Below, one piece after another: positions 1-16,669 of a stretch of DNA of 64,000 bases. Below the pieces are notes generated by a model. It had not been told where the DNA came from. It saw nothing but the letters and a program-made list of their open reading frames with translations, and searched no databases. The position numbers were made by a program, and so were the translations under genes. The DNA lies in contig RDNZ01000001.1 of assembly GCA_011364905.1 (NCBI GenBank), positions 54,025 through 118,024 of the forward strand. The letters run 5' to 3'. How positions within the stretch are numbered: position 1 is the stretch's first letter; each line of letters begins with the position of its first letter. The DNA comes from Candidatus Thorarchaeota archaeon (lineage in GTDB: Archaea > Asgardarchaeota > Thorarchaeia > Thorarchaeales > Thorarchaeaceae).

Positions 1-3000
1 GTTCATTAATAGGAACAGAGTACAGCTCTGGTCCCAATATATCTGCGGGAGTAACATAGATTTCAATCTTTGCGGTTACAACTCGAGAGGTGTAGTTGGT
101 AAGATCAAATCGGACCACTAGATCATACAATCCTGGGTTCTCGACATTGATTGGTACATTAACCTCGTAAGATCCGTTTATATGTTGGATAACAACCAGA
201 TCTCCCCCTTCCCAACTGGCTAGCACATTGGCACCATAGATCAACGAGTTATGCTGAGTATCATTGTAGTAGAATAGAAATGATTTCGTGTCACCCCAAT
301 ATCCGCTCTGTAGGATTGGGACTGCAGTTGCTTGAGTTGGTATAGGTAAGATAGTGATGACTATAGACTTGTATGCCGTAGCGTATCCCATTTTGTCTGC
401 CGTCATCCGGAGGTATATGGATTGGCTCGCAAGTGAACTGACATCAATGAAAGCACTGTATGATCCATTTAGTAGATCAGTGAAGGTACCACTCAAACTA
501 CCCAATGTGTATGATACTGTAGCACCAGAAACAAGTGCTGCATGGAAAGTATCATTGTATACCGCCGTCAAGGACAATGAGTCGCCGAAAAAGACGTATC
601 GGATCGTAGTTCCGTCTGACGACGCAATTGTTGTTGGAATTGGGACGATACGTATGTCAATGTTGGTCTCTATGAACTGAACATTTGTGGTTACAGCTCT
701 GATTGTCAATGGGAAGACACCAACAGCGAATCCGGTAACATCTACCGATCCAGTGTACCAACCTGGGACACCAGTGGGCGTAAGGCCAGTTACTGTTCCA
801 TTCCATTCCATTGTCACACTCGCACCAGTGACGGGTAAGTCAGTGACTGTGCTTCTCAAGTATAGATCGAAATCGATTACATTGTCTATAACTGCGTCAT
901 AGGTTGACTGCAAAGGTACTATCTGACCAGGAGCTTTTGAAACCACGAGAGTGAATGATTTCTGTCTGGTTTGGTAAAACTCCCTTGATGCTGTAATCTG
1001 TGGATTGTAAATGCCAAAATCTGCATCTGACGTATCAAGCAGCAAGTAGTAAGAGCCGTCCCCAGCATCAACAAAGTCGTAGATTGTGCTAGCCCAAAGT
1101 AGGGTTGCATTGAATCCCTCTAGATAACTCAAGTAGAAGGGTTCTTGGACTCGGAAACTAATGTTTAGAACTTCTCCCCAATCTCCATAGTAAGTGGATT
1201 GAGTCAAGACAATTTGTACAAGTTGCGCACCAGGTTGTACCGCGACTTGCGCTTCAGCGACTTGATAGAAGTTCTTTGTGGCTGTCACGGTGATTGAATA
1301 TTGTTGAGCAACCAGTCCGGTAGTGTTCAAGGTGAGCGAATACAACCCATTGCCATTCTCAACCCATTGATATGCATTGCCAGTTATATCGGTCCAATCA
1401 CACTGTATTACTGCGCCTTCTAGAATCGTTCCGTGGTCCAAATCTTCTAGGGTAAGGGCTATGTTAATTGGAACTCCAACTGCTGTTGAACCAGCTGGTG
1501 GTGCCTCAGCAAGAAGCGATGTATGGACTGCTCTGACCAGTGCGGGAACATTCAATGCACTTCGGTCTGAATAGAATGGGGAACCAGTCCATGTTATTGT
1601 GATATTGAAGTACACAGTCCCTGGTGAGCTGAAAAGAGTTGTATTCAATGTTATTTGATAGACTCCGTTACCAAGACTGCTTACATGATAATCAGGCGAA
1701 GACCAACTACTACAGAATAATGTAACAGTTGCACCTTCGATTCCATCACCTGTGAGAAAATCAATGTATTCGAGGTTCATTGTGATATTGTCAAAGTATG
1801 GGGTTTCCTCCACAAGTGGAAATAGAATCACAGTTGAACGATAAGTCGTTGATGCTTGCGTAGTTGCAGTTCTATCAGCATAGAAGGGTGAACCTGATGT
1901 CCAATCTATACTTAGTTGAATAGCATGACTTGTTACCAAACTAAACGCATCTAGAATGGTTGAATTGAAACTAATCTCGTAGTATGTTCCGAAATTCACA
2001 AGAGTATAGTCACCGGATGCTATCACAGTCTGACTGACTCCATGGCTCAAGGTTATGTCACTCTTGTCAATTGTGATAAATGACTTATCTAAGAAGTCTT
2101 CAAACACAAACCTGAAGGATACATTCTCGAGGAATGGAGTGCTACCGGGAGTCTTCGTTATTCGAATTTGCGTCGGTCGTTCTATAATATTAGCAGACAG
2201 TGTTCGTCGCGATGATAGATAATAGGGCGCTCCTGAGAAGGATGTTGTTACATTGAGTTGAAATGTACCCGGTGGTCCGAGAGCCGCGGTGTCAATTTCA
2301 ACCAGATAATCGCCATTACCATTGTCTGTGATCCAATAGTCCACGCCCAAGGTCAAAGTGAGAGGATCGCTTGTCACCATGACTGATGCGCTAGTGATAC
2401 CGATACCTGAGCTATCATCGGTGAATGTAATGACAAATGTAATGTTTGACTGATATGGTGCATTGTCTGGACTCTCATAGCTCAACTGTGTTGACCTTTC
2501 TAGAACAGTGAAGGCGAAGTACTCGAAGTTGTCACTTACATAATTAGGTCCAGTGTATGCTATGCTTGCATTGATGTAGTGAACCCCAGGCGGACCAAAC
2601 GCTGAGGAGTTCAAGACTACAGTGAAGTGACCATCAGACACTGGTGTTACATGATAGAAAGCAGCACCAATGTTCAGAGTGAGAGTACCAGTCATTGCAG
2701 TCGTTGTTCCTGAGATTATGTCGGTGTAGACGAACTGAATGGTGACATTGTTACCCCATTGCGCCGGAGTAAATGGTAGGTGCGTCAACTGAGAACTTCT
2801 AAGCAAAACCATGACTAAGAATTGCTGGTTTTGTACGTCAGCATAGAATGGTGTGCCACTCCAAGTCAGGTTGAGGTGAAGTGCGACTTGACCCACGCCA
2901 CTTAGAGAGGAAGTATTGATGACTACTGTAAACTCATTAGTACCAGGATCAAAGGAGTAGGACCAATCAACTCCAGGCTCATTGATTTCGATATTCAATG

Positions 3001-6000
3001 ATGCAGAGTCTGCAATCCGTTCTGTTCGGATGGAATCAACGAATGAAAACACAAGACTTGCGTCCTCACCATAGGCAGTCGGTGAAACGGGTGAATAATC
3101 AATGTACGTGGGGCGTTCAAGAACCATAAGGAAAACACTGATTGTTTGATTCTCATATAGCGGGAGGACTCCGGCACTCCACAGAAAGCCGATATTCACT
3201 TGGAACAATCCTACACCTTCGAGATTTGTGCTGTTAAGATGGAACTCATAGAGTACAGTAGCTCCCTGATTAACGATTTCAATGTGGAAATCGTCTCCAG
3301 TAACTGGATTCACGCCAATGGGTGTGAAGGAAAGTGACACAGCGCCAGTTACGTTTGAGATGTAGGTTGAGTTGACCACATCATAGAACACAGCTGAGAA
3401 TGTGAAGTTGTCCAGATAGTACGTGGCAACGGGAGCTGTTTCTAAATACAAGTCGGTTTCTGTGCCTATCAATCTAAACGTAGTGTCAAGAGTTCGAGAT
3501 TGGAACTTTAGTACTGGTCCCGTCCAACTGATTTGGATAGAGATGTTTTTCCAACCGACAGTTGACCACTGTAAAGTTGGAACTGTGATATTATAATGAC
3601 CTGAACCCAGATCGCTCACAGAATAGACCAGTATGGGCAAATCAGAGGGCGTGACTAGAATATGAACATAGCCAGAGCTATTATCTATACCTAAGTTTAA
3701 GTCTGAGTCAAGATAGTTGACTAGAATATATGCATCAACTCCATGCGGAGTCTGAAGTATTGGATCCTCAAGCGTAAACAGAGTTGAATGTGATCTAACT
3801 TGTACACTTATTGAAATCGTATGATTCTGCATCTTTGTACCAGAGAAGCTCACAGAAACTGAGGATGTTCCTAGCGGAGTGGAATCAGTTGTGAATATAG
3901 TGAGTCTATACAGTCCTACCGAAATCTCATTGATACTATAAGTACCGGACCAATCGCAGAGGATTGAATTGTTTAGACCAGTGAGGGGTGTATTGTGGTC
4001 TGCATCAGTCCACTCGAAAGTCAATGAACCAGACTCGCCAACTGGAATTGCAACAACATTTTGCAGGTAGGTCACCTTTGTGTATAGTTCCCTGACTTCA
4101 ACATAGAGCAGATACCGCTGGGGTAGAATATATGGTGCACTTCCTGTGATCTCTACAACATATTCTCCCATTGCAACAAAGGTTGTATTGAGCCAGAACT
4201 TGTAGCTCCCTGGTGATCCTGCTACAGGCGTAACGCTATAGTAGCTAGACCAATTACAGTCGACAGTTCCCGAAACAATTCGTGAACCGAGATAGTCCTC
4301 AAATCCTATCGTGAAAGAGCTGTTATATCCAGAGGGGATTGATAGTCCTGGCGAAACGGGTGCTTCAAGCATCAAATTTGCATCGAAGTTGAGGTTTATT
4401 GTCAATACATCATGAACTGCATCGAAATAAGGATGAGTCCAGTCAAGATTCAGAGTGTACTGTCCTTTCTGAGGCAAGTCACCAGTATCAAGTGTAGCGA
4501 TGTACTCACCATTGCCAGCTGTTCCGAAATACTCTGTACCAGTGGTCCAGTTATAGCTCATCTGCCCATCTGAAACGGTCACTCCAGGAATATCAGTATC
4601 ATTGATTTGAATTCTAATGAGAAACAGATCAGGATAGGTCACATTTGTTGTCCAGGTTACAATGGCATCCTTTGGATTCAACAAGGTAGATTCGGATGCA
4701 TGTATAATACTGAATGAACGACGGAAGAATCCAGTCTTGTTCCATGCAGAGCCTGATAGACTGTTGGAGCAAAATGCCTGAACAATCCACTCTCCAGCAG
4801 ATGCATTGGCACCAAAGGTCAAGCTTCCAGAATTCGCATACCCAGTACTGTTTACTGTAGCCATCTCTGAGAACCAAGCTCCACCTGATGGTGAAAACAC
4901 GGTTATATTGACTTGGACTCCTGCGAATTGAGCGCCAATGTCTACTGCAAAGAAGGCCGTATCAGATGCCCTGAGGTTCATCGTCTGAGCTGTAGTGCCG
5001 CTTCCAATATTGGTCATCAGCAAATCAGTGATCATGTTTGCGCCTTTACTTTTAACAAGCCAATATCCCCACCGGTCTGCATAGGGATAGGCAGTAACAT
5101 TCGCAAACCAATCTGGACCATGTCCCTCATCCCATGAAGAGATGTTCACATTGGTTCGTAAGGGTGAGCCCACATAGTAAACATCCCGATTTTCAGGCAG
5201 AGAGATGTTGTAATAGTATCGATTATCATATCCCTCAGGAATGTCGGCGTAGAACCAAGTCAGGTACTCAACCAGTGAGGCATTCGTTGCCACAAAATTC
5301 TCTCCAAAGGATGTAGGGTCTTGAGTTGTAACCGTGGTTGATTCGCTTCTAGCATAGAGATTCGTTTCAACTGTAAATTCAACCCATATGTTTCTGTTCG
5401 GGACTGGTGTTGATGGTGTGGGTGTCCAAGAGAAGGTCACATCAACAGGACTTGTGGTCCAAACTGACGTAGGATTCTGTGTGACATTACCAAGTCCAGG
5501 TACAGACGAGCCGCCGCTGATGAAATCATTAACATCGAGCCCGTTCATTTGCATGTTGAGATCGCTTGGGTCGGCCTTGGTCTTTAGATATAGCTCGAAG
5601 TTGTCAACACGTGCGTAGGGATTAAGGTCGGGATTATAGTTCACAGTCTGCTGGCTGTAAAGACCTACTGTAACAAGTACGCCATCTGACAGGTCGAAAA
5701 TAGATAGGTCTGGGAGAGTAATCAATCCACTATCGTACCAAGTTTGGGCTTGATCAATATCAGGGAATGACTTTTGCCAAACACGCTGAGTGTAATCGTT
5801 CGTTTCAATTGAAACAAAGATAGCTACAAATCCATCTGCGCCCCAGTCAGAGTCAACCCAATAGTCCAGTCTAAAGCCTGCCCAAACAACGTCACCACGA
5901 TTCACAGAGAAGGTTTGCTGAGCCCAGGCTCTCTCCCCTTCAGATGGGTCTCCACCGCCTGCGATCTCAAACTGAACACAGTCATCTCCAGCACCATGTC

Positions 6001-6496
6001 CGTTGGCTAACCAGCTCGCCGATGGAGCTGCTCCTCCACCAATGCTCACCTGATTGAGAGACCAGCTAGATGGGCTGTTTTCCATATCGGGATCTTGGAC
6101 CCATGTTCGATTCTCTGTAAGGTCAGATATTCCGGTAAATAGCTCATAGCCTTCCCAGTCAGTACCCATAGGAATCGAAACGGACTCACTATTGGTACTA
6201 CTATTGCTTGAGAAGTATCTCATCTGATTGCTGGTGAAGGTATCGCTTCTATTTCCATACTCTTGTGCTGGCAATCCAGATGATGTACCAGACCACGTGG
6301 TCCAGCCTTGTTCAGCATTCAAATAGCCCGTTTCAGTAGGATTGGACATCGGAGAAGAGATTGTATCTTCCGGATTGGCCATACCATTGGTCGTTTTGCC
6401 GCTTTGTCCTTGTTGCAAACCAATATTCGCTGTAGCACTGAACACCATCAAGAATGTGATGAGTATCAATAGGGATAGTCTATATCTTGTGTTCAT
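1..6496 (-). CDS. Giant secreted Ig-like-repeat surface protein, 5' part only (at least 2165 codons; C-terminus lies beyond the window start). It is a paralog of the adjacent 2564-aa protein, with a signal peptide, a Laminin_G_3/ConA-like N-terminal domain and then repeated beta-sandwich modules rich in N-glycosylation sequons.
   Basis: The minus-strand frame with ATG at 6496..6494 stays open down to position 2; I hand-checked the first ~45 and last ~19 codons. The N-terminus reads MNTRYRLSLLILITFLMVFSATANIG, a signal peptide. The N-terminal region aligns with the N-terminus of the 2564-aa neighbour (RVDNFELYLKT versus RMDNVRIFIKT). It is missing from the ORF track only because it has no in-window stop. 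Confidence 0.75.
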   Translation of the reverse strand, partial: MNTRYRLSLLILITFLMVFSATANIGLQQGQSGKTTNGMANPEDTISSPMSNPTETGYLNAEQGWTTWSGTSSGLPAQEYGNRSDTFTSNQMRYFSSNSSTNSESVSIPMGTDWEGYELFTGISDLTENRTWVQDPDMENSPSSWSLNQVSIGGGAAPSASWLANGHGAGDDCVQFEIAGGGDPSEGERAWAQQTFSVNRGDVVWAGFRLDYWVDSDWGADGFVAIFVSIETNDYTQRVWQKSFPDIDQAQTWYDSGLITLPDLSIFDLSDGVLVTVGLYSQQTVNYNPDLNPYARVDNFELYLKTKADPSDLNMQMNGLDVNDFISGGSSVPGLGNVTQNPTSVWTTSPVDVTFSWTPTPSTPVPNRNIWVEFTVETNLYARSESTTVTTQDPTSFGENFVATNASLVEYLTWFYADIPEGYDNRYYYNISLPENRDVYYVGSPLRTNVNISSWDEGHGPDWFANVTAYPYADRWGYWLVKSKGANMITDLLMTNIGSGTTAQTMNLRASDTAFFAVDIGAQFAGVQVNITVFSPSGGAWFSEMATVNSTGYANSGSLTFGANASAGEWIVQAFCSNSLSGSAWNKTGFFRRSFSIIHASESTLLNPKDAIVTWTTNVTYPDLFLIRIQINDTDIPGVTVSDGQMSYNWTTGTEYFGTAGNGEYIATLDTGDLPQKGQYTLNLDWTHPYFDAVHDVLTINLNFDANLMLEAPVSPGLSIPSGYNSSFTIGFEDYLGSRIVSGTVDCNWSSYYSVTPVAGSPGSYKFWLNTTFVAMGEYVVEITGSAPYILPQRYLLYVEVRELYTKVTYLQNVVAIPVGESGSLTFEWTDADHNTPLTGLNNSILCDWSGTYSINEISVGLYRLTIFTTDSTPLGTSSVSVSFSGTKMQNHTISISVQVRSHSTLFTLEDPILQTPHGVDAYILVNYLDSDLNLGIDNSSGYVHILVTPSDLPILVYSVSDLGSGHYNITVPTLQWSTVGWKNISIQISWTGPVLKFQSRTLDTTFRLIGTETDLYLETAPVATYYLDNFTFSAVFYDVVNSTYISNVTGAVSLSFTPIGVNPVTGDDFHIEIVNQGATVLYEFHLNSTNLEGVGLFQVNIGFLWSAGVLPLYENQTISVFLMVLERPTYIDYSPVSPTAYGEDASLVFSFVDSIRTERIADSASLNIEINEPGVDWSYSFDPGTNEFTVVINTSSLSGVGQVALHLNLTWSGTPFYADVQNQQFLVMVLLRSSQLTHLPFTPAQWGNNVTIQFVYTDIISGTTTAMTGTLTLNIGAAFYHVTPVSDGHFTVVLNSSAFGPPGVHYINASIAYTGPNYVSDNFEYFAFTVLERSTQLSYESPDNAPYQSNITFVITFTDDSSGIGITSASVMVTSDPLTLTLGVDYWITDNGNGDYLVEIDTAALGPPGTFQLNVTTSFSGAPYYLSSRRTLSANIIERPTQIRITKTPGSTPFLENVSFRFVFEDFLDKSFITIDKSDITLSHGVSQTVIASGDYTLVNFGTYYEISFNSTILDAFSLVTSHAIQLSIDWTSGSPFYADRTATTQASTTYRSTVILFPLVEETPYFDNITMNLEYIDFLTGDGIEGATVTLFCSSWSSPDYHVSSLGNGVYQITLNTTLFSSPGTVYFNITITWTGSPFYSDRSALNVPALVRAVHTSLLAEAPPAGSTAVGVPINIALTLEDLDHGTILEGAVIQCDWTDITGNAYQWVENGNGLYSLTLNTTGLVAQQYSITVTATKNFYQVAEAQVAVQPGAQLVQIVLTQSTYYGDWGEVLNISFRVQEPFYLSYLEGFNATLLWASTIYDFVDAGDGSYYLLLDTSDADFGIYNPQITASREFYQTRQKSFTLVVSKAPGQIVPLQSTYDAVIDNVIDFDLYLRSTVTDLPVTGASVTMEWNGTVTGLTPTGVPGWYTGSVDVTGFAVGVFPLTIRAVTTNVQFIETNIDIRIVPIPTTIASSDGTTIRYVFFGDSLSLTAVYNDTFHAALVSGATVSYTLGSLSGTFTDLLNGSYSAFIDVSSLASQSIYLRMTADKMGYATAYKSIVITILPIPTQATAVPILQSGYWGDTKSFLFYYNDTQHNSLIYGANVLASWEGGDLVVIQHINGSYEVNVPINVENPGLYDLVVRFDLTNYTSRVVTAKIEIYVTPADILGPELYSVPINE

Positions 6497-9400
6497 TCTT
6501 CCATCCCTCCAATCTCTTTTAGCAATGCATCTATTTCAGCCTTAGACAGGTTTCGGGCTTGTTCTATCATGAGATCAGCCTCTGTTTCTTCAATGCCCAT
6601 TTTCAATAGACGCTCTTTCAAGTGAAGTAGTTCATCTTCTGAAAGACGCTCCTCAGCAACTTCAGCAGGGACTCCTTCCTCAGCAACCATCTCAGCTTCC
6701 GCAAGTTCTCTCGCCCGACGTGCACGCTCCTGTTTGAGAACCTCATTGATGAATCCAGCTCTCTCACTTGGCCGCATCTTGTCAAGGTCTTGACGTAGAG
6801 TATCAATGTCATCAGGAGTCAAACCGACAACAGTGGCAAGCTGATCTAGAAGCAGTTCGACATCCATTACTGTGACATCAACTGTTGACAGCGCCACATC
6901 TTCCTCTGTCTTCTGGATTCTAATTGGCTTCAAATCATCATTCATCATTGCGAGAAGCATTTGGCGTCTCTGAGGAACATCAGCAGGTTTCGGTATTTTG
7001 CCTTTTGACAGAGACCCTATCATTCTCCTAATGATTCGTAGCAGCTTTGGCACAGATAACACTCTGAAGTATAGTGCGCCTAAGGCAGCGAATAATACAA
7101 GAAGCATTGTGCCATTTCGGAACCATGCGACAAGTGCCTCTTGCTCAGGTGAGAAGCGAGTATAAACGTCAAGATTGACCTCTCCATCTGCATAGTTAAC
7201 CCTGCTTAGAATGATTTTCAAGCTGTAGAGGGCTAACACGGGAGCACGAAATGCGATTGCATATGTTCCATTGTGGTAGTCGATATCAAGTTCTTCCACA
7301 TGAACCAAATTTGCTGTTTGCACATTGTTGCTTGATCGGATTGTAATATCAGCATCCGTGATTGGTAAAGAGTGATCACTGTCGAGATATGTGACATTTA
7401 CGAAGAAGACACGACCGACATAGATAAATTCGGGCAAAGCAGAAGATACTAGCTCCGTCGCAATCCTGCGTATTTTCAAGGAAACATCAATCTCTCCTCT
7501 CGAGTAGTTTCCTCGAGATATGAAAATCCTGATTGTATAATTCTCGTCGCGATATTGTAGTGTTTGACCTAGATTCGCCTCCGTTGGACCGAAGACGTAT
7601 GATCCGTTATTCAAATTGGTTAATTGAACGGCACCAAACTCCCAATATGCAGTAGCAAGACCGTCAGCTATCCAGTTTGCATGAAGGTCATCCCAATAAC
7701 CAAATGTCATCGAGTAATCATCACCTACAGCAAACTCTGCTTCCGTTTTTCCGGTTAGCACGGTCCGAATTGGATTGACAAGCAGTTTCACCAATCCTGA
7801 AGCAAACCGAAAGTTCTCCTTTCGGAAGGAGATGGCTATGTTATGGGGAACAGTTCCTGCCTGAACAAGAGAAGTGTTAACCGTAAGTGAGTATGTACCA
7901 TTGCCATAATCGAATAGCGAACCCTTGAACTGCTCTAATGTGTAGTTAGTAATCGCACCCGGTATTCCCTCGTCAGCATGGATATCATGGAAGACAAGAA
8001 CAAATGTGACTTCCTCCCCATAATATCCACTAAGAGTGGCGTCAGTCACAATAACAATATCAGTATCGACAACTTCAACATTCAAAGTGAATTGGATTGA
8101 TGAAGGCCTATAACCGTCCTTGTCACTCGAGATTATAACAGTCCATTCTTGGACACTAAGATCTGTGGTGTCAATAAGAGCACTGTAATACCCAGGCGTA
8201 CCTAATTCGGTTAAATTCCCGACAAGCGGCCCTACACCATATGAGAGACGGGCACCGAGAACAGGTGTGTTTAGATCTGTATTATTCAGATAAACAGTGA
8301 TATTGGCAATATCACGGAAGTTCACAGTAACGACAAAATCTGAAACAGCTACAAGACTAGTGGAAAGCTCAGTGATTTCAATTGTAAGTTGCATTGATAC
8401 ACTCTTGTAGTTGTCCGAGCTAGCTTGAATGAGAATCTGATGGGTACCTACAGAGGCTCCTGTAACAATAAAGTCCACAACGTATTTTCCATCCGATGCA
8501 GACCACGGAATCTGTCCAGAACCTCCAACCCAACTATAGGTGACCTGACCATTCGTAATTGGTGAGCTGTCAGAGTATATGAGATAATCCACTTGGAGAT
8601 GGACACTCAATCCGTTGACGGTCGAAAGAGGATTGATCGATCCGGCAATTTTTGATGCAATCTTGCCAATTCGAATTTGGAAATCTCTTTGCCTGCTCTC
8701 ATAATTGAGGAGGACGGATCTCACTGTGACTGTGTGTTCACCAGCGACTATCTGCCAAGATTGCACGGTAACATTGTATATACCAGATCCAATATGAGTC
8801 ATGTCGACTGTTATAGTTGAAATAGTCAGATTGACATATGCGCCAACAATGGGAGCTCCAGTTCTAGCATCTGTAACATTGGCTTGGAAATTAATAGAGT
8901 CGCCCCAGGAGGGACTAGTAGGATTAAAGTCTAGCTCAATCTGAACTGGTACAGCTGAAAGGAGAATATCCGCGAGAATTGTATGATTTTGGTGCAAATA
9001 CTTTGAGGCACTTACTGAGAATGAATACAAACCAGCATCCATTCCAGATGTTTGAATCGTCATTTCATAGACGCCGGTGTCAATTTCATGAATTGTTGCT
9101 ATTGTTGGGTAAGTAGCGTTCCAATCACTCAAAACCGTCGCGCCTGGAATACCAACTCCAAATTCAATTGCAGTGTAGGTGATGTTGGCGTGGATTACAT
9201 CTCCCAAGTAGTATGTTACACCTTGAGGCAGGGTGAAGCTAAGAGTCGTTGATACAGAATTAACAACCGCTGAAAAGCTTAGATTTGTTACATTTGTGTA
9301 ATATGGAGAACCATACCAAGTCATATTGGCTGTGAAGAAATACCTGCCCAAACCAGACAATGTTGTGGTGTCTACCAGAATCTGATAAGTGCCATCACCA

Positions 9401-12400
9401 TTGTCAATGATCCAATGCGTGAAACTTGTGGAATTTGCTGACTCTAATGAAACATCTGCCCCGGGGATTCCATTCCCGGTGAGATAGTCCTTGAAGTCAA
9501 GCAAGGCGCTGATATTGAAAAAGTAATACGCTGGTGGAGTTGATAGGACTGAGGCTTGAGTATACCGAGTGGAAATTGTGACTTGAGTGGTTGTCGTGGA
9601 ATTCTCATAATATGGCGTCATGTCGCCCCAGTGGAATTGAATAGTAATTGGGTACGCATCTTCTAGCTCTGAGGATAGAAGTGTAGAATTGAAGGATATC
9701 AAATAGAATCCATCTTGTCCAGTGAGTGTATACTGAGAGTCGAGGATTACTGTGCCTCCTCCATGTGTGATGGTAAGAACAGATTTTGTCAGAGATATTC
9801 TAGTGCTATTCACATCATCCATAACGCTAATCTGGAATTCTACATTGCTCAGGAACGGAGTCGTTAAAGGCGAACGGGTCACCGACAGCGTTGCGTATCG
9901 TCTCACCACATCTATTTGGACATTCGTTATCCTACTCTGATAATATGGTGCGCCTGTTTTGCTTGCTGAGATTGCAATGGTATATTCACCAAAGTTTCCT
10001 AAGGCAAGTGTTGAAATCCTGATGCGATAGTCGCCACCTGTTAGTGAATCAACCCAGTAGTTGACTCCGAGCTGAAGTGTAGCGTTGGAACAGGTCGCAG
10101 TAATGGTTGCGCCATCTATACCCGCGAGTGTGCTATCGTCAAAATAGGACACAAACACTTCAGCTTCCTCCAAGTAGACTGCAAGAGAGGGGACTTCGCT
10201 AGTTAGTTGAGTCCTTCTTTGGATAAGCGTTAGATAGAAGAAGTCAGTGGCATCAAAACAGAAGTTTGTGCCTGTGTAAGACATCGATGCATTGACCGTA
10301 TAGGTTGCCAGTGATGGAAATGCGCTTGTATCAAGAGTCACTGTGAAAGTGCCATCTCCATTGTTTACAACGTTATAGTATCCTAGTAGAGACGCATCTA
10401 GTGTCAAGCTTCCAGTGTTCAACAAGGACTGATCGTCAAGGTCTCTGTAAGTAAAGACGATAACCAAATCATTACCATATTGAATTGAGGTGTATGGTCC
10501 ATGTTCAAGATTCGTGTATCTACTCCGCACGGTCAGTGATATCGGAATGCTGGTTCGGTTCTGGTAGAATGGGGTACCAGTCCACATCACATCGAGATGA
10601 AGTGTGAAGGTTCCAACGTTGCTCCACCATGTTGTATCAAGCTCCAATACATACTCTTGACTACCCGGTAGATAGATAGCGCTAAGAACAAGTCCGGTCT
10701 CCTGAACCTGATAATTCAATTGAGGATCATCGGAAATCGGCAGGCCTGTTAGAACATCGATGTAGGAGAAAGTCAGATTGACATTATCTCCATATGGAGT
10801 GGTTGGGAGAGGTTCCCATAGAATGCTTGTTTGCCTGTATCTGGTATTCACTGCTACGGTCAGTGATCTGTTTTCGTAGAGCGGAAGCTGTCCAGATGTC
10901 CAATTTGCAGAGATTCGAATCTCACATGTAATGATACCGCTAAGATAATTTGTATCGAAGGTTATTTGATATTCTCCATTACCTAGTTCGGAGATCACCA
11001 TCAGGTCTTGGGTTAATGTCTGACCTGGTGTAAGGACTTCAATATAGAAGTGCACATTCAAGGGATAGTCTCCAGTACTATTGGTTATCCCAGTACTGTT
11101 ACTAATGTCCCAATATACAACCGAGAAGGTGACATTTTCCCCATAAGGAGTGGCAACTGGATTCGTTCCTATGTACAAATCAGATGGACTTCCAGCGATT
11201 CTTGCGCTTACCTGCAGCACTTTGTTATCGTGCGCTGGTTGTGGACCAGTCCAATTTGCATAGAGTGTTATATCCTTCCTGCCAATCGACCCCCATTGAT
11301 CAGCTCTTATTCTAACTATGTACTGACCAGCTATTGAACCATTTACAACTGTATACTCAAGTGACGGTACACCCACGGCTTCAGCATAAATCAAGACATT
11401 GCTGCTGACAATTCCTTGTGATGTTGTAATGTCATAATACATCACGTAAATCGTAATTTGACCAGTGTAAGGCGTTGGTTCGATGGGATTATCTAAGGAG
11501 AAAGAAGTCAAATGAGTGATTATATCAATACCAATGCTGAAGGTATGGTTCTGGTAGGCAAAGCGGTTAACATCGAAGACCACGGAGTAGTCCTGAATAG
11601 GATCAGATTCAGCTGAGTAAAACGTTATGCTGTATTCACCTGGTGCACTGGCTGCCACAATGTAACTTGACCAGTTGCATGAGATGGAACTCTCTGCACC
11701 CGATATCGGAAGATCGTGATCAGTATCCCAGTATGTCAGTGTAATGGTTTCTTCATAACCAACTGGGAGAGATATGCCGCTCTGGGAAACTGAAACTGAA
11801 GTGAAGATCTGTCGCACTTCAACAAATAGAAGAACCTGAGAAGTAGTGTAGTAATTCTGCTCTGCTGTGACGACAACCGCATAGGTGCCCAAGTTGGAAT
11901 TTCCTGTAGTAATCGTAAGAGTGTAGTTACCAGGTGCTCCAGCTACTGGATTGACGGTGTAGGATGAATCTGTCCAATTACATGTTAGAACTGCACCACC
12001 AATACCCGCGTCTTCCGAGTCTGCGTAGAAGAGTTCGAGAACTGCATTGTCTCCTCGGGGCACTTGTACCCCAGGAGCACTACTGGATTGTAATGTTGTT
12101 TCTTCAACGACATTTATCACAAAATACGTTTGGAGTGAATCGTAGTACTGCTTACTCCATGAAATGCCTATCACATATCGACCAGGGAGTCCCAAATCTG
12201 CTGTGTTGACAACAACACTGTACTCACCAGTACCCATATCATTCAGGATGCGTGTTCCAGTAGTCCAGTTGTATGTTGCAGAACCTCCTGGAAGGAGAAG
12301 ACCATTATTGGAGTCATTTACACCAATCTGAAGAAGCATATCTTGACCATAGGTGAGATTTCGTTCCCAGGAAGTAACAGATTGCCTGGGATAGGCAATA

Positions 12401-14187
12401 TACATGTCAGATCCATGTTCAATTGTAAACGACCGTGAATACAAACCGATGTTCTCAACGGGACTACCTGAAACAGAATCATTCACGAATGCTTGTACCG
12501 ACCATTGCCCTACTTCAGCTGTGAAGGCATCAAGATTCAAGTCGGTCGTTTCAGCAATCCCTGAAGACACCGTTGCTGCCACTGTGTCCCATAGGTTGCC
12601 CATTGTGTCATAGACGTTGAATGTAACAGTCGCACCGTTGTAAACGGTATCAAGATAGGCTTGGAAGCGAACATTGTCATTAGCCCGATACGTGTTTGTA
12701 GTGACCCAACTGGCACCACTTGACATTCTCAAGTCTTGAATTATGTTCGCTGAATGCCCTGTTATTTTCCAGAATCCATTCTGATAGGTCCCGACAACTC
12801 CATCATAAACTGAAATGTTCAAGCTTGTTGCAGTGGTGGACCAATATGGGAAATTGACGGATGGGAATCGAGGTTCTGATACAGTATCAATAACCAGAGT
12901 ATCAGATTTACTTGCATTGAAGTAGAATAACTGGGAATAACCGTTTGGGACAGCAACGTAATAATATGTAATCCAGTTTACTTGGCTGGCATTACTGGTC
13001 GTGAAGTGAGTGCCCAGACTCTGAACATCAGCTTCATAGAGTGAGGACTGGTCAACTTTTCTTGCATATACCGTCATGTCGACAGAAAAAGTGACACGAA
13101 TATCATCATTAGGGTTGGGATTTACTGGAGTCGGAGTCCAGCTGAATGTTGCATTCACTGCACTTCCACTCCATGGGATAGCTGCAGATTCCTGAACTGT
13201 GCCTAAACTCCATGTAGCGCCATTGGACACGGGAATGCCATTCATTTCCAAGTTTACTTGACTTGGTTGCACTCGAGTCTTTATGAAGATTCTAACATTG
13301 TCCATCCTCACCTCTGGGTAGAGCTGAGGATTGCTTCCGAATGATCTTGTAGTCCTCATTCCAATTTGCAGAATGAAGTTGGATGATGTGATGAGTGAAG
13401 GGTCAGCCTCGATTAAGCCTGTGGAGTACCAAGTTGTTTGTGCAAGAACATCACTGAACTGCATGTCCCACAGATGGTTTGATACATTATCATTGTGGCC
13501 AATTTGAGCGTATAGCTCCCAAAAACCAATGGGCAGACCGCCCCAATTATCATCAACCCAGTAATCAAGTGAAACGCCAACCCATGTGACTTCACCACGA
13601 TTGGTATTGATTGTTTGCTCCGCATACTGTCTATCGCCAAGGTCATGGCGGTAGTAGCCTCCATCCAACACACCGTCCATCTGAAAGCTGACATACCCAC
13701 CAGTTATTGTAGAAGACATAGGATTTGTGTGAGTTGGCAAATCATCATAGCCAGTTGTCCAGTCCGCTGCTGAACCAAAACCGGGGTTGGTAAGATAGGT
13801 TCGATTCTCCTGAAGGTCACTCACACTGATGGATGTGTCAGTACCTTCCCAAAGAGGACCGAGAGGAACAGAAACAGTCTGAGTTGTGGTAGTATTTGTA
13901 GGATAATAAGCAAGGTCCAGGTTTGAGTGGTGATCCGTCCTTTGCCCATATTCCGACACTACCATAGGAGACCCTTCGCCTGAAACTGTTGTTGGGACCT
14001 CAGAAAGAGAATAAGAATTCAGGACCTCATCTGGCCCAACTTCAACGGTCTGACCATTGCCTAGATCTACCTGTTTTGCTCCAGGCGCAGAGGAAGTTGG
14101 GGTGGCATTATGAGTCATAGGGGCTCCAAGACTCACAAGTAGAGACGCCATCACGAGAAATAGAAACAGGGTCCTTTTGACTTTCAT
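6493..14187 (-). CDS. Giant 2564-aa surface protein: signal peptide, Laminin_G_3-like lectin domain, then more than 20 Ig-like/beta-sandwich repeats with many N-x-S/T sequons, a single C-terminal TM helix, and a roughly 200-aa acidic coiled-coil cytoplasmic tail.
   Basis: Single uninterrupted 7.7-kb ORF. The N-terminus MKVKRTLFLFLVMASLLVSLGAP is a signal peptide. The motif RMDNVRIFIKT matches the Laminin_G_3 C-terminal consensus. Repeats of about 100-120 aa carry recurring Y/W/G/D positions. The TM helix is MLLVLFAALGALYFRVL (about nt 7050-7115), followed by a tail ERARRARELAEAEMVAEE...KEIGGMEE. An SD GGAGG sits 8 nt upstream of the ATG at 14196..14200. Confidence 0.85.
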   Translation of the reverse strand: MKVKRTLFLFLVMASLLVSLGAPMTHNATPTSSAPGAKQVDLGNGQTVEVGPDEVLNSYSLSEVPTTVSGEGSPMVVSEYGQRTDHHSNLDLAYYPTNTTTTQTVSVPLGPLWEGTDTSISVSDLQENRTYLTNPGFGSAADWTTGYDDLPTHTNPMSSTITGGYVSFQMDGVLDGGYYRHDLGDRQYAEQTINTNRGEVTWVGVSLDYWVDDNWGGLPIGFWELYAQIGHNDNVSNHLWDMQFSDVLAQTTWYSTGLIEADPSLITSSNFILQIGMRTTRSFGSNPQLYPEVRMDNVRIFIKTRVQPSQVNLEMNGIPVSNGATWSLGTVQESAAIPWSGSAVNATFSWTPTPVNPNPNDDIRVTFSVDMTVYARKVDQSSLYEADVQSLGTHFTTSNASQVNWITYYYVAVPNGYSQLFYFNASKSDTLVIDTVSEPRFPSVNFPYWSTTATSLNISVYDGVVGTYQNGFWKITGHSANIIQDLRMSSGASWVTTNTYRANDNVRFQAYLDTVYNGATVTFNVYDTMGNLWDTVAATVSSGIAETTDLNLDAFTAEVGQWSVQAFVNDSVSGSPVENIGLYSRSFTIEHGSDMYIAYPRQSVTSWERNLTYGQDMLLQIGVNDSNNGLLLPGGSATYNWTTGTRILNDMGTGEYSVVVNTADLGLPGRYVIGISWSKQYYDSLQTYFVINVVEETTLQSSSAPGVQVPRGDNAVLELFYADSEDAGIGGAVLTCNWTDSSYTVNPVAGAPGNYTLTITTGNSNLGTYAVVVTAEQNYYTTSQVLLFVEVRQIFTSVSVSQSGISLPVGYEETITLTYWDTDHDLPISGAESSISCNWSSYIVAASAPGEYSITFYSAESDPIQDYSVVFDVNRFAYQNHTFSIGIDIITHLTSFSLDNPIEPTPYTGQITIYVMYYDITTSQGIVSSNVLIYAEAVGVPSLEYTVVNGSIAGQYIVRIRADQWGSIGRKDITLYANWTGPQPAHDNKVLQVSARIAGSPSDLYIGTNPVATPYGENVTFSVVYWDISNSTGITNSTGDYPLNVHFYIEVLTPGQTLTQDLMVISELGNGEYQITFDTNYLSGIITCEIRISANWTSGQLPLYENRSLTVAVNTRYRQTSILWEPLPTTPYGDNVNLTFSYIDVLTGLPISDDPQLNYQVQETGLVLSAIYLPGSQEYVLELDTTWWSNVGTFTLHLDVMWTGTPFYQNRTSIPISLTVRSRYTNLEHGPYTSIQYGNDLVIVFTYRDLDDQSLLNTGSLTLDASLLGYYNVVNNGDGTFTVTLDTSAFPSLATYTVNASMSYTGTNFCFDATDFFYLTLIQRRTQLTSEVPSLAVYLEEAEVFVSYFDDSTLAGIDGATITATCSNATLQLGVNYWVDSLTGGDYRIRISTLALGNFGEYTIAISASKTGAPYYQSRITNVQIDVVRRYATLSVTRSPLTTPFLSNVEFQISVMDDVNSTRISLTKSVLTITHGGGTVILDSQYTLTGQDGFYLISFNSTLLSSELEDAYPITIQFHWGDMTPYYENSTTTTQVTISTRYTQASVLSTPPAYYFFNISALLDFKDYLTGNGIPGADVSLESANSTSFTHWIIDNGDGTYQILVDTTTLSGLGRYFFTANMTWYGSPYYTNVTNLSFSAVVNSVSTTLSFTLPQGVTYYLGDVIHANITYTAIEFGVGIPGATVLSDWNATYPTIATIHEIDTGVYEMTIQTSGMDAGLYSFSVSASKYLHQNHTILADILLSAVPVQIELDFNPTSPSWGDSINFQANVTDARTGAPIVGAYVNLTISTITVDMTHIGSGIYNVTVQSWQIVAGEHTVTVRSVLLNYESRQRDFQIRIGKIASKIAGSINPLSTVNGLSVHLQVDYLIYSDSSPITNGQVTYSWVGGSGQIPWSASDGKYVVDFIVTGASVGTHQILIQASSDNYKSVSMQLTIEITELSTSLVAVSDFVVTVNFRDIANITVYLNNTDLNTPVLGARLSYGVGPLVGNLTELGTPGYYSALIDTTDLSVQEWTVIISSDKDGYRPSSIQFTLNVEVVDTDIVIVTDATLSGYYGEEVTFVLVFHDIHADEGIPGAITNYTLEQFKGSLFDYGNGTYSLTVNTSLVQAGTVPHNIAISFRKENFRFASGLVKLLVNPIRTVLTGKTEAEFAVGDDYSMTFGYWDDLHANWIADGLATAYWEFGAVQLTNLNNGSYVFGPTEANLGQTLQYRDENYTIRIFISRGNYSRGEIDVSLKIRRIATELVSSALPEFIYVGRVFFVNVTYLDSDHSLPITDADITIRSSNNVQTANLVHVEELDIDYHNGTYAIAFRAPVLALYSLKIILSRVNYADGEVNLDVYTRFSPEQEALVAWFRNGTMLLVLFAALGALYFRVLSVPKLLRIIRRMIGSLSKGKIPKPADVPQRRQMLLAMMNDDLKPIRIQKTEEDVALSTVDVTVMDVELLLDQLATVVGLTPDDIDTLRQDLDKMRPSERAGFINEVLKQERARRARELAEAEMVAEEGVPAEVAEERLSEDELLHLKERLLKMGIEETEADLMIEQARNLSKAEIDALLKEIGGMEE

Positions 14188-14425: not shown

Positions 14426-16669
14426 TTATTCTCTCTTTCGAATTACAATGACACCGACTATTACAATAACGGCTGCAATACTTCCTGCAACGATTATCGG
14501 TGTCAGAATATACGGAGGTGTATTTGTGGTAGTGCTAGTTGGTGTTGATGAAGCCGCACTAAGATGTGTCAAAACTCCTCCTTCTGCTCTATTCATCCCC
14601 CAATCCCAAGCAACCACCCATATAGTAAGATTTGAGGTGTGCTCCAAGAAGGGAACTGACACTGACCAATTATATCCGTTATAAGCCATTGGAAAGCTAC
14701 GAACAACACCATCATCTACCTGAACATAGAGTGTGACATTCTCCAATCCTGCAAGATTTTCGCTAATCATCGCCCAGTAGGTGAAAGGGCCAGTCCAAAA
14801 GTCGCTTGGATTAGTACCTCGACCATATATCGACGGAGGTATGTCATCAATTGACGAAAACATCATTCTTCGAGTCCAATCTCGAGCTTTTACCAAAGCA
14901 CTGTATGCTGAATGCCAGTCCATTTCATTGTAGGAATTTCTTGCAGATTCAAATGAAGCAAGAGCAGCAGATTCCGCGGCATAGGTTACGCCTCTCTCAT
15001 CGGATCGAAGATTGGATTGCTCCTCAAGAAAGTTTGACCATAGAAGAGCTTCCATCTGGTCCAAATAGGTCCCCTGAACCCAGTTCTTCTCAAAAGTGGA
15101 GGTACCGTTGTGTTCAGCAAAGTATCCCATAGGTCCGTAATAGAAGTCACTTGAATAGTGCTCATGTTGCCAAGAGTGCGCAAATCCGATTGCATGCATG
15201 GTCTCATGAAGTTGAGTGGCTGATATTCCATCCTTGGGAGTCACACCATCCGGGCGATAATAACGTTCCCAAGATTTCCAGATGACTGTCTGTCCTCCTC
15301 CACCCAGTCCGGTGTACGCTCTTCCATAGACATGCATTTCCATTTGCTTCTTTATGAAGACAACTCCAAACACATTGATGTTGTCGTCATTAACCACATA
15401 TGCGGGTCTCATTCCACTGTAGATAGCATTAAACATGGACCCACCATCAACAATTGTTGTTCCATCTAAGTTATCTGCGGCGTATGTCCAGAACAGGCTG
15501 TTCCAAGAAGGTTCTTCATCGATGTCTAGATATTGGACATCAACCTCCCATTGAATGAAGGGATAGAGTTCCTCAAGATGCGCCTTTTGCATCTCAGCGT
15601 TGGTCACCCATTCGAGGCTATTGACAGAGGTCCCATCAGCTACATCCATGCAAAACACCAGCACCTTCAGTCTACCAACATCAACATACTTTGCAGGCTG
15701 ATGCTGATATGGGAAAAGTAGTTGGCTGATAGGGTCCCAGATGCACTCTCTCAAGTAAACATTGAGTGCATCTACATCTGCAGGTATGTCTAAGTTGAGA
15801 GATCCCACTTTGTCCTCTAAATCTTGAGTCCAGAAATCGTAAGACGTATTGATTTCTTCGCTCCACCAAACCTTGCACCATTTCAAGTACCACTGATGAG
15901 CACTAGGGTCCACTACATACAGATTATAGCGTCCACCGAAGAACGGATAGTCCATCGTGACATTCGGATTCAGAGCGTTGTCCCACTCCAATCTAAACCA
16001 GTCTTGATTCTGTCCCGTATCAGGATCAAGGGGGTGGTAGTTGTACCAATGTTCCAGACTGTGATCCGCGCTGTCAAACTCCGAGAAATTAACAAGATAA
16101 AGAGTGTACCCAAGATCAGGCGGACTCGTGTATGGATTCTCTTCTAGCCAATCCTCCACTGCATAGCCATCAATGGCACGACCTGCTCGAGGATAGAATA
16201 TTCGTTGTGGTTCGTCGAGGTTGTCCTTCTGATATAGTAGTGCGCTCTCATCAAGGCCTGTCCCTGTTTCGCTTCCATTTATGGAATTGTCAAGCATGAC
16301 TTGGCGAAGTTCGTCGTTGTATGCAGCATCTGCATAGACGATTTGATACTCGATATTATAGGTGATTTGAGCTGCTTCTGTAGAAAAGTTCCTGATTGTT
16401 GGTAAATCCTGTAATAGTAACGGTTCATCAATTAGAGAAGGATCATAACCCACTACGATGATATTAGCTGTCCAGTTTCTCTCAATTGGTTGAGGCCCCT
16501 GACTAAGAGTAGCTTGCTTTACTGGCTGTCTGTGATTATCTTGCACACCAAAAGGAGTGGCAATCACAAGCACTAAAGCAATACCTAGGACAAGAGCACG
16601 ACGCATAGTGTTCCCTGCCTTCTTCACCATATTAACAAACTGGTTCATGTAACCGCAACCAAACCACAT
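14426..16669 (-). CDS. Secreted metzincin-type zinc metalloprotease with a Ser/Thr-rich stalk and C-terminal TM anchor. The true start may be 16630 (MVKKAG...) or 16606 (MRRALV...).
   Basis: HETMHAIGFAH fits the HExxHxxGxxH metzincin zinc-binding motif. The N-terminal hydrophobic stretch ALVLGIALVLVIATPFG is a signal peptide. A stalk SAASSTPTSTTTNTPPY is followed by the TM helix IIVAGSIAAVIVIVGVIVI plus RKRE at the extreme C-terminus. Confidence 0.7.
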   Translation of the reverse strand: MWFGCGYMNQFVNMVKKAGNTMRRALVLGIALVLVIATPFGVQDNHRQPVKQATLSQGPQPIERNWTANIIVVGYDPSLIDEPLLLQDLPTIRNFSTEAAQITYNIEYQIVYADAAYNDELRQVMLDNSINGSETGTGLDESALLYQKDNLDEPQRIFYPRAGRAIDGYAVEDWLEENPYTSPPDLGYTLYLVNFSEFDSADHSLEHWYNYHPLDPDTGQNQDWFRLEWDNALNPNVTMDYPFFGGRYNLYVVDPSAHQWYLKWCKVWWSEEINTSYDFWTQDLEDKVGSLNLDIPADVDALNVYLRECIWDPISQLLFPYQHQPAKYVDVGRLKVLVFCMDVADGTSVNSLEWVTNAEMQKAHLEELYPFIQWEVDVQYLDIDEEPSWNSLFWTYAADNLDGTTIVDGGSMFNAIYSGMRPAYVVNDDNINVFGVVFIKKQMEMHVYGRAYTGLGGGGQTVIWKSWERYYRPDGVTPKDGISATQLHETMHAIGFAHSWQHEHYSSDFYYGPMGYFAEHNGTSTFEKNWVQGTYLDQMEALLWSNFLEEQSNLRSDERGVTYAAESAALASFESARNSYNEMDWHSAYSALVKARDWTRRMMFSSIDDIPPSIYGRGTNPSDFWTGPFTYWAMISENLAGLENVTLYVQVDDGVVRSFPMAYNGYNWSVSVPFLEHTSNLTIWVVAWDWGMNRAEGGVLTHLSAASSTPTSTTTNTPPYILTPIIVAGSIAAVIVIVGVIVIRKRE

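Follow-up and report, generated by a model that had tools for sequence, protein, structure and literature searches.

A 2564-aa surface protein of a Thorarchaeota archaeon, encoded by what is termed here gene A, ends behind its transmembrane (TM) helix in a strongly conserved folded domain, which is restricted to the Asgard archaea and is not low-complexity filler. It is the basis of a hitherto undescribed domain family, seen mainly in Thorarchaeota and carried on the largest proteins of these genomes. No description of the tail was found in the literature, and an exact-match look-up of the gene A protein returned no record. Table 1 lists the relevant features of the window, the 64,000-nucleotide stretch of Candidatus Thorarchaeota archaeon DNA that was analysed; among the other window ORFs checked, none carries the tail modules.

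Table 1. Features of gene A, its protein and its neighbours, in window positions
Feature	Position	Strand	Residues	Basis or character
Giant gene A (type I surface protein: signal peptide, ectodomain, TM helix, cytoplasmic tail)	6493..14187	-		2564-aa ORF
Ectodomain	7114..14115	-	about 25-2358	S/T/N/Y-rich, K-poor, 52 N-x-S/T sequons
Single TM helix GTMLLVLFAALGALYFRVL	7057..7113	-	2359-2377	hydrophobicity; conserved cytoplasmic boundary residues
Juxtamembrane segment SVPKLLRIIRRMIGSLSKGKIPKPADVPQ	6970..7056	-	2378-2406	basic amphipathic helix, then KG-x-IP motif
Module 1	6709..6969	-	2407-2493 (87 aa)	helix, then three-helix unit
Variable acidic linker	6646..6708	-	2494-2514	low model confidence; least conserved part of the tail
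Module 2, terminal three-helix unit LSEDELLHLKERLLKMGIEETEADLMIEQARNLSKAEIDALLKEIG	6508..6645	-	2515-2560 (46 aa)	slowest-evolving part
Dual-use 3' end of gene A	6493..6510	-		GGAGGG 6510-6505; ATG 6496-6494 overlaps TGA stop 6495-6493
Giant gene B, paralogue of A	2..6496	-		runs off left window end; N-terminal 2165 aa present, ATG 6496-6494
747-aa membrane-anchored protein, HExxH (HETMHAIGFAH)	14426..16669	-		upstream of A

Topology and extent of the tail

Only two stretches of the gene A protein are strongly hydrophobic, a signal-like segment at residues 3-26 and GTMLLVLFAALGALYFRVL at residues 2359-2377, in agreement with the single TM helix noted in a preliminary description of this DNA. 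Coordinates 6496-7120 encode residues 2356-2564, comprising the TM helix and the tail, of which the tail itself accounts for 187 aa (6496-7056) and not the approximately 210 aa first given. The highly charged, helical character attributed to it is borne out, with 36% D/E/K/R, a net charge of -12 and helices by prediction. One string quoted as an example, 'EELDIDY', is at residue 2298, 60 residues ahead of the TM helix, and thus lies in the ectodomain, outside those coordinates.

A type I single-pass topology (N-out, C-in) with a cytoplasmic tail is supported by the signal peptide, by the distribution of sequons (52 in the ectodomain, or 2.2 per 100 aa, versus one in the tail), and by a net charge of +7 over the first 40 residues past the TM helix; the call is made from such heuristics (hydrophobic segments, sequons and positive-inside charge). 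The cytoplasmic boundary of the TM helix is conserved, with Y/W at -5 and R/K at -3, and forms part of a nearly invariant motif, (Y/W)-x-(R/K)-V-x-S-V-P-K-x-L-R, in which P(+2) and R(+6) are found in all 196 of 196 unique family sequences. The juxtamembrane helix has a hydrophobic moment of 0.75, and probably lies as an amphipathic basic helix on the inner leaflet of the membrane.

In the ectodomain, Pfam matches to Ig-like domains were all sub-threshold, as were those obtained with the whole 2564-aa protein (Ribophorin_II_2nd, CarboxypepD_reg, Big_6 and Filamin), and BLAST self-comparison found no significant internal repeats.

Predicted fold

AlphaFold2 models the tail (mean pLDDT 82) as seven helices of 11-32 aa that form two three-helix modules, with a linker of low confidence between them. 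Module 1 is predicted with a pLDDT of 92-96, and is marked by the signature D-L-x-x-M-R-P-S-E-R-A-G-F-x-x-E-V-x-x-Q-E-x-x-R-R-A, whose near-invariant polar residues (E, Q, E and R) share one face of its long helix. Across the family, the linker can be as short as 15 aa or exceed 250 aa. Module 2 occupies the extreme C-terminus throughout, in one copy or, in one subfamily, four. The placement of the two modules relative to each other is uncertain in the models (pTM 0.32-0.43).

The coiled coil of roughly 200 aa that had been proposed for this region is not supported: it would need a continuous, extended amphipathic helix with heptads over some 30 or more residues, whereas the predicted helices pack into small bundles on either side of the linker, and the longest run free of Gly and Pro is 33 aa.

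The two modules appear, from profile comparison, to be duplicates of one three-helix unit. Aligned with hhalign, they match over all 46 columns (79% probability, E 1.6e-5), and in the distant 'ELDKIPGL' subfamily they are visibly alike; at the level of single sequences the repeat is not significant, emerging only when profile is compared with profile.

Family and conservation

The tail is no chance sequence: 38 close homologues share it, and an exhaustive HMMER search found it in 140 clusters at 50% identity, always at the C-terminus and on proteins of up to 5543 aa. All named members are from Asgard archaea, mostly Thorarchaeota, and full-length orthologues of gene A (2570-2916 aa) occur in Thorarchaeota MAGs. 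Some distant Asgard proteins retain the juxtamembrane motif alone. Some family fragments carry the JGI label 'MgtE'.

Tail identity is 57-87% among orthologues; against paralogues it is 39-58%, compared with 23-53% for the ectodomain. The dN ranges over 0.11-0.20 in the tail and 0.13-0.47 in the ectodomain, and is lowest in module 2 (0.04-0.10), so that the ectodomain evolves up to four times faster than the tail, a comparison made in dN only, as synonymous sites are saturated and give no reliable dN/dS. The claim that the tail far exceeds a stop-transfer anchor holds: in orthologues and paralogues alike, its conservation equals or exceeds that of the ectodomain. Low complexity with no conservation in orthologues, the outcome that had been named as speaking against the observation, is not what was found.

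Coupling to gene B and neighbourhood

The layout of the gene junction, read from its nucleotides, shows gene A to be translationally coupled to its paralogue, gene B. The Gly-Gly codons at the end of gene A, GGAGGG, lie 8-9 nt ahead of the gene B start and resemble a Shine-Dalgarno site; GGAGG is present in 34 of the 36 A genes that have B downstream, and is missing from B-type ends. The order A then B recurs in about 33 genomes, and the 35 junctions comprise ATGA (23), GTGA (8), TTGA (1), TAATG (2), and one with no overlap, in a three-gene array. As the codons for the C-terminal 'IGG' make up this ribosome-binding site, the conservation of these residues is partly at the nucleotide level. A ubiquitin-like 'GG' C-terminus was rejected on the same grounds, the GG being confined to A-type genes and always coded GGAGG. 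Orthologous B genes encode 2558-2636 aa, and end in a matching TM, juxtamembrane, module 1 and module 2 tail. No charge complementarity between A and B tails is obvious, both being acidic (mean -11.8 and -9.4).

In 21 related loci the 747-aa HExxH protein is found upstream of A and shares its strand. Apparently extracellular with a C-terminal anchor, it is part of the conserved gene cluster and not of the tail. The remaining conserved neighbours are gene B and housekeeping genes, and no partner gene, be it cytoskeletal, roadblock, longin or GTPase, is evident among them.

Searches for relatives

Pfam, applied to the whole protein, the tail, 26 family members and seven distant members, gave nothing above cut-off, nor did NCBIfam applied to the tail. 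The weak matches differ between members (EF-hand_8, Death, RecX_HTH1, MgtE_N, FliG_N and Bap31_C). Profile searches of PDB sequences, made with the whole tail and with module 2, matched Thf1, chorismate mutase and MgtE, none with an E better than 0.1. The best hits were to de novo designed helical repeats, alongside the polycystin-2 EF-hand region at E 0.006; we take all of these as signs of a generic helix-loop-helix or helix-capping pattern. Foldseek detected no relative, with nothing below an E of 3.

Several specific identities were rejected. MgtE_N (PF03448) reached at best E 0.015, or 16.3 bits against a cut-off of 25.9, in one distant member, and the PDB match to MgtE had an E of 1. FliG (PF14842) reached at best E 0.084, again in one distant member, with a Foldseek match at E 6.7. 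RecX_HTH1 scored 18-19 bits against a cut-off of 26, over half of the model, in two of seven proteins. UBA is absent from the Pfam matches of the window protein and of seven representatives, and is not one of the 25 families listed across 26 aligned members; where a UBA domain has a conserved M-G-F/Y loop between helices 1 and 2, 'MGI' occurs in the A subfamily only, the loop being RGL, KGV or RKI elsewhere. Integrin and cadherin domains are likewise lacking, all whole-protein Pfam matches being sub-threshold, and hand inspection of helix 1 of module 2 gave no match to a MIM1-type (Vps4-binding) motif. A tentative lead is the C-terminal ALLDQIGG, which over six residues in some orthologues resembles the ALLDQIRxG of WH2, an unstructured amphipathic helix with an LKKV-type motif after it that binds the barbed-end cleft of actin; in the model this stretch makes up the third helix of a three-helix bundle, and it has no LKKV.

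Proposed role and alternatives

No known fold or family, in Pfam, NCBIfam, the PDB or Foldseek, gives a hint of function. We put at about even the chance that the tail serves inside the cell as a docking or assembly domain for two co-produced giant surface proteins, A and B. The two would be made in equal amounts and act as a pair. The polar stripe of module 1 (F-x-x-E-V-x-x-Q-E-x-x-R), together with the tethered terminal module 2, would provide protein-binding surfaces, and these may bring tails together in pairs or clusters, or tether the giant ectodomains to some conserved partner in the cytoplasm. Such docking would fix or position the giant proteins, possibly passing force or signals across the membrane.

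An unlikely, though the next most plausible, reading is that the tail merely stabilises the membrane insertion and retention of a huge ectodomain, as a positive-inside plug, an in-plane amphipathic helix and hydrophilic ballast with no specific partner. The basic juxtamembrane helix and invariant boundary motif would suit an anchor, the survival of the juxtamembrane motif alone in distant Asgard proteins fits it, and so does a conserved neighbourhood that shows no partner gene. Ballast, however, has no need of two confidently folded modules or of near-invariant surface E, Q, E and R on one helix face; nor would it be expected to include the slowest-evolving segment of a 2564-aa protein, and the amplification of module 2 to four copies is left unexplained.

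Two further readings both seem improbable. The first, that of the preliminary description, is an acidic coiled coil of roughly 200 aa binding cytoskeletal or adaptor proteins, much as the tails of eukaryotic type I receptors or adhesins do. The tail is indeed long, acidic, helical, cytoplasmic and conserved, and the Asgard archaea, to which Thorarchaeota belong, encode actin-family cytoskeletal proteins, but its helices are at most 32 aa and broken by Gly or Pro, AlphaFold2 gives small bundles and a disordered linker, no known adaptor-binding tail resembles it, and one of the example strings is extracellular. Coupling of the predicted domain to the cytoskeleton is possible in itself. The second, to which we give similarly little credence, would make A and B a heterodimeric giant adhesion receptor whose tail modules, held out on a flexible acidic tether below an invariant TM-boundary clasp, dock onto Asgard cytoskeletal or membrane-remodelling proteins, an independently evolved archaeal counterpart of integrin or cadherin linkage.

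Regulated intramembrane proteolysis is very unlikely. Here, ligand binding or ectodomain shedding would lead to cleavage within the TM helix and free the tail, for example as a cytoplasmic regulator, for which the HExxH protein upstream in the cluster, the strong conservation of TM and boundary residues, and the weak matches to three-helix (RecX-type HTH) models could be cited; yet the HExxH protein appears to be extracellular and C-terminally anchored and not an intramembrane protease, the strongly acidic tail is unfavourable for DNA binding, and all HTH families fall below threshold. Least probable is a C-terminal sorting signal or outside-facing segment, with TM helix and tail removed or exposed outside as in archaeosortase PGF-CTERM substrates: C-terminal processing signals are common on archaeal surface glycoproteins, but such signals stop a few basic residues past the TM helix, whereas here ...WFRNGT and no PGF-type motif precedes the helix, and a basic cluster and 187 conserved, folded, sequon-poor residues follow it.

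Comparison with known systems

The docking or assembly domain proposed here sits on a protein that otherwise resembles archaeal S-layer-type glycoproteins, with a Sec signal peptide, a heavily sequon-bearing ectodomain and a C-terminal membrane anchor. In those glycoproteins, by contrast, the chain ends a few basic residues past the TM helix; we know of none in which a conserved, folded domain of about 190 aa follows in the cytoplasm, and to our knowledge no archaeal single-pass surface protein with such a domain of this size has been described. The modules themselves recall the tandem three-helix repeats of RecX, MgtE_N and FliG, in which units of about 45 aa (helix, G-h-x-x-x-E-I, helix, helix) are arrayed in tandem, and to which there are weak profile matches (RecX_HTH1 E about 1e-3, MgtE_N 0.015, FliG_N 0.08), but the tail matches are all below curated cut-offs and inconsistent between members.

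The likeness to eukaryotic receptor tails is architectural only, as no sequence or fold relative was found. Like integrin alpha and beta, A and B are two paralogous, co-produced, large single-pass glycoproteins, with a highly conserved motif right where the TM helix meets the cytoplasm (in integrins, GFFKR and HDRK) and tails whose presumed mode of action is protein docking. The A/B family lacks sequence or domain homology to integrins, however, and its heterodimerisation is suggested by translational coupling alone; integrin tails are of 20-70 aa and largely unstructured, compared with 187 aa and two predicted folded helical modules here. Classical cadherins combine a repeat ectodomain, a TM helix and a bipartite cytoplasmic domain binding p120 and beta-catenin. 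The resemblance lies in the long ectodomain, the single TM helix, a tail length of about 150-190 aa divided into juxtamembrane and C-terminal parts, and conservation of the tail exceeding that of the ectodomain. A cadherin tail stays intrinsically disordered until bound; the present one is predicted to be folded, in a family with no cadherin or catenin-binding signatures that is restricted to Asgard archaea.

Even if it does not dock, the tail amounts to a clean new domain, with a well-defined motif at its boundary, that merits a family entry. Eukaryotic cell-matrix and cell-cell coupling rests on single-pass surface proteins with conserved, folded cytoplasmic domains; on the adhesion-receptor reading, the archaeal counterpart would stand in the lineage related to the ancestor of eukaryotes. 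If the tail docks intracellular partners, it offers a handle on what lies beneath the Asgard membrane, and allows one to ask whether outside-in linkage predates eukaryotes.

Topology of the giant surface protein

The cytoplasmic tail of the protein encoded by gene A, a giant surface protein, is a real, new and lineage-specific domain, whose architecture is suggestive and whose functional role is putative. A Kyte-Doolittle scan found only two strongly hydrophobic stretches in this protein: an N-terminal signal-like segment and a single TM helix ahead of the tail (see table). The ectodomain contains 1% Lys, is rich in S/T/N/Y, and carries 52 N-x-S/T sequons against ~29 expected (an estimate from composition), with just one sequon in the tail. 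The tail itself has a net charge of -12, with 36% charged residues, and a net charge of +7 in its first 40 residues. Together, the hydrophobic segments and the distributions of charge and sequons argue for a type I topology (N-out, C-in), which these heuristics strongly indicate.

The preliminary description, which placed a highly charged helical tail behind a single TM helix, is partly borne out by this layout and by the helical structure models. Its coordinates (6496-7120) do cover the TM helix and tail, with the length of about 210 aa corrected to 187 residues, and its example sequence EELDIDY lies at residue 2298, ahead of the TM helix. A coiled coil of 200 aa is excluded, because no stretch free of Gly and Pro is longer than 33 aa; the helices are also short in both AlphaFold2 models.

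Features of the giant surface protein and neighbouring surface genes (window positions; res, protein residues)
Feature	Position	Strand	Basis or description
Gene A	6493..14187	minus	ORF, 2564 aa
N-terminal signal-like segment, A protein	res 3-26	minus	Kyte-Doolittle hydrophobicity
TM helix GTMLLVLFAALGALYFRVL, A protein	res 2359-2377, window 7057-7113	minus	Kyte-Doolittle hydrophobicity
Tail after TM helix, A protein (187 residues)	6496-7056	minus	ORF translation
A 3' end, ATT GGA GGG ATG GAA GAA TGA	6493-6510	minus	Shine-Dalgarno-like GGAGG + ATGA overlap
ATGA overlap, B start/A stop	6496-6493	minus	sequence
747-aa HExxH protein (HETMHAIGFAHSW)	14426-16669	minus	N-terminal signal/anchor, C-terminal TM helix, 4-residue tail
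Leucine-rich-repeat protein, 381 aa	19036-20181	minus	immediately downstream of 1188-aa protein, same strand
Second type I surface protein, 1188 aa	20228-23794	minus	Laminin_G_3 domain, one TM helix
Predicted surface protein, 528 aa	28388-29974	minus	C-terminal TM helix, short basic tail RVRYHVKKT

Anatomy and fold of the tail

Local HMMs derived from the tail alignment were applied to every complete member of the family, and revealed the same order in all: TM helix, juxtamembrane segment, module 1 (87 aa), a variable linker, and module 2 (46 aa), with 3-5 residues between its end and the stop codon. At the membrane boundary, 196 unique sequences share the consensus (Y/W)-x-(R/K)-(V/I)-x-S-(V/I)-P-(K/R)-x-(L/I/V)-R, in which the Pro and last Arg are invariant, followed by a strongly amphipathic helix (hydrophobic moment 0.75). 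On the long helix of module 1, six near-invariant residues (F, E, V, Q, E and R, at i, i+3, i+4, i+7, i+8 and i+11) line up along one face. Variants of the modular plan include one subfamily (P0068, P0071, P0073, P0081 and P0089) with four module 2 copies in tandem and a tail of ~403 aa, and the Thorarchaeota protein P0166, in which module 1 is swapped for a ~250-aa acidic, Asp/Glu/Pro-rich disordered stretch and the terminal module 2 is kept.

Two AlphaFold2 models were made, one of the TM helix plus tail (pLDDT 78) and one of the tail without the TM helix, which used 52 sequences (pLDDT 82, rising to 92-96 in module 1). Helices in the latter span residues 8-23, 44-56, 59-69, 74-105, 118-130, 135-145 and 150-161. 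The linker is of low confidence and the pTM is 0.32-0.43, a low value that means flexible modules; a modular fold is strongly indicated. Profile-profile alignment placed all 46 columns of module 2 on module 1 residues 32-78 (probability 79%, E 1.6e-5), and the two modules share the pattern ELDKIPGL..EEK..L....K....ER in one distant subfamily; the tail is therefore most likely a duplicated three-helix unit.

Family and distribution

Searching with the tail alone, a check proposed in the preliminary description, retrieved 38 proteins, all of them fragments from Asgard metagenome-assembled genomes. Full-coverage matches were 57-87% identical to the A tail, the nearest paralogue was 42% identical, and the alignment has extended invariant stretches, MRPSERAGF..EV..QE..RRA among them. 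With an HMMER profile, an exhaustive search through 1.84 billion cluster representatives extended the family to 140 clusters at E <=1e-3, 78 of them at E <=1e-30. Almost all 140 have the match at the C-terminus, and the proteins reach 5543 aa in length; a few weak matches are mid-protein and cover the TM-juxtamembrane part only. Named members are Asgard archaea without exception and in the majority Thorarchaeota, the remaining labels being single Hermodarchaeota, Hodarchaeota and 'Lokiarchaeota' and several unspecified 'Promethearchaeota'; Helarchaeota gave distant matches only, retaining just the juxtamembrane motif. The closest relatives of the window are Thorarchaeota MAGs, among them AB_25 and SMTZ1-45.

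Four low-GC Asgard proteins (P0155, P0168, P0170 and P0173, from Helarchaeota and other Promethearchaeota) carry the TM-boundary/juxtamembrane motif only, as LRYPKxVRKIRK...KGKxP, some with a second hydrophobic segment after it. Because these proteins keep the motif without modules 1 and 2, it may serve a separate function that does not depend on them. P0135 (341 aa, on a JGI contig of 2152 bp) has no giant ectodomain: its module 1, with some of the juxtamembrane motif, lies behind an unrelated N-terminal region of ~190 aa with at most a weakly hydrophobic stretch. Either the architecture differs here, or an artefact of assembly or gene calling may be responsible. On contig_23502 (916 kb), gene calling splits the gene A orthologue (L001, 6423-10894) into three ORFs in succession, of 915, 283 and 297 aa, probably through frameshift errors or as a pseudogene, and such splitting explains many of the short-fragment database 'proteins' bearing the tail.

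The A/B gene pair

A second giant ORF, B, has a start codon that overlaps the stop of A, and runs past the left end of the window. The syntenic B gene on a 916-kb Thorarchaeota contig encodes 2590 aa, ending in the same TM helix, juxtamembrane segment, module 1 and module 2. At ~33 of 70 loci from species-representative genomes a B gene comes after A in the same orientation, and the 35 junctions compared comprise ATGA (23), GTGA (8), TAATG (2), TTGA (1) and one non-overlapping case, in a three-gene array; coupling of the two genes is strongly indicated. The 49-kb contig JBHIAE010000022.1 of Thorarchaeota K_3_bin.28 (L039, L047) carries a tandem row of four giant genes with the tail, seemingly an A/B pair that was duplicated.

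Of the 36 A genes with a B gene after them, 34 encode the Gly-Gly of their C-terminal '(I/L)GGxxE' as GGAGG, which lies 8-9 nt ahead of the B start. B-type tails end in 'LGIDLD', and GGAGG is absent from them (gene ends compared, including the L003-L050 junctions). Judged from this distribution, the last tail codons double as the ribosome-binding site of B, with 'GG' dual-coded; part of the C-terminal conservation is therefore a nucleotide-level constraint.

Selection on tail and ectodomain

Among full-length relatives, tail and ectodomain are about equally conserved in the nearest orthologue (77% versus 62-83% identity), whereas the tail is better conserved among paralogues (39-58% versus 23-53%). 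Codon alignments of the window's A gene with eight orthologues gave a dN of 0.11-0.20 for the tail, with 0.04-0.10 in module 2, against 0.13-0.47 over the ectodomain, whose membrane-proximal part has 0.23-0.38; dS was saturated, and dN/dS, only where computable, was roughly <=0.08. Given these identities and dN values, the tail is therefore conserved, and not the unconserved low-complexity sequence that would have spoken against the preliminary description.

At three related loci (L003, L006 and L007) the ectodomain dN reaches ~0.45-0.47, with tails 76-85% identical to that of the window (dN 0.11-0.20). Such a contrast suggests that the tail stays constant while the ectodomains on it diversify or are replaced by recombination.

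Neighbouring surface genes

A membrane-anchored HExxH protein of 747 aa, without a Pfam match, lies directly upstream of A on the same strand in the window and in 21 related loci; given this conserved place, the giant pair may have in it a partner resembling a surface metalloprotease. Gene neighbourhoods of the related loci contained no candidate cytoplasmic partner conserved near A/B. Counting the HExxH protein, the window has five membrane-anchored surface proteins within 30 kb. The cytoplasmic tail of the 1188-aa protein (~229 aa) is unrelated to the A tail, alpha/beta in appearance, and without a Pfam match even at an E of 5; the 528-aa protein likewise has no Pfam match.

Proposed role and comparison with known families

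In the best-supported reading, the tail is a conserved domain for docking or assembly inside the cell, borne by two giant type I surface proteins that are produced together. The inner leaflet would be the site of the boundary motif and the amphipathic helix, with module 1 and the tethered terminal module 2 acting as binding surfaces; the existence and identity of a docking partner are putative, and A and B would presumably heterodimerise.

Nothing above threshold was found in Pfam or NCBIfam for the tail, 26 family members, or distant members. PDB sequence searches with the tail gave marginal matches or designed proteins only, Foldseek gave no PDB match at E <3 for either AlphaFold2 model, and the JGI label 'MgtE' on some tail-bearing fragments has no supra-threshold match behind it. 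Literature searches found no description of the tail of giant Thorarchaeota surface proteins, and every test of membership in a known family, for tail or protein, failed. The likeness of the A and B proteins to integrins and cadherins is one of architecture only.
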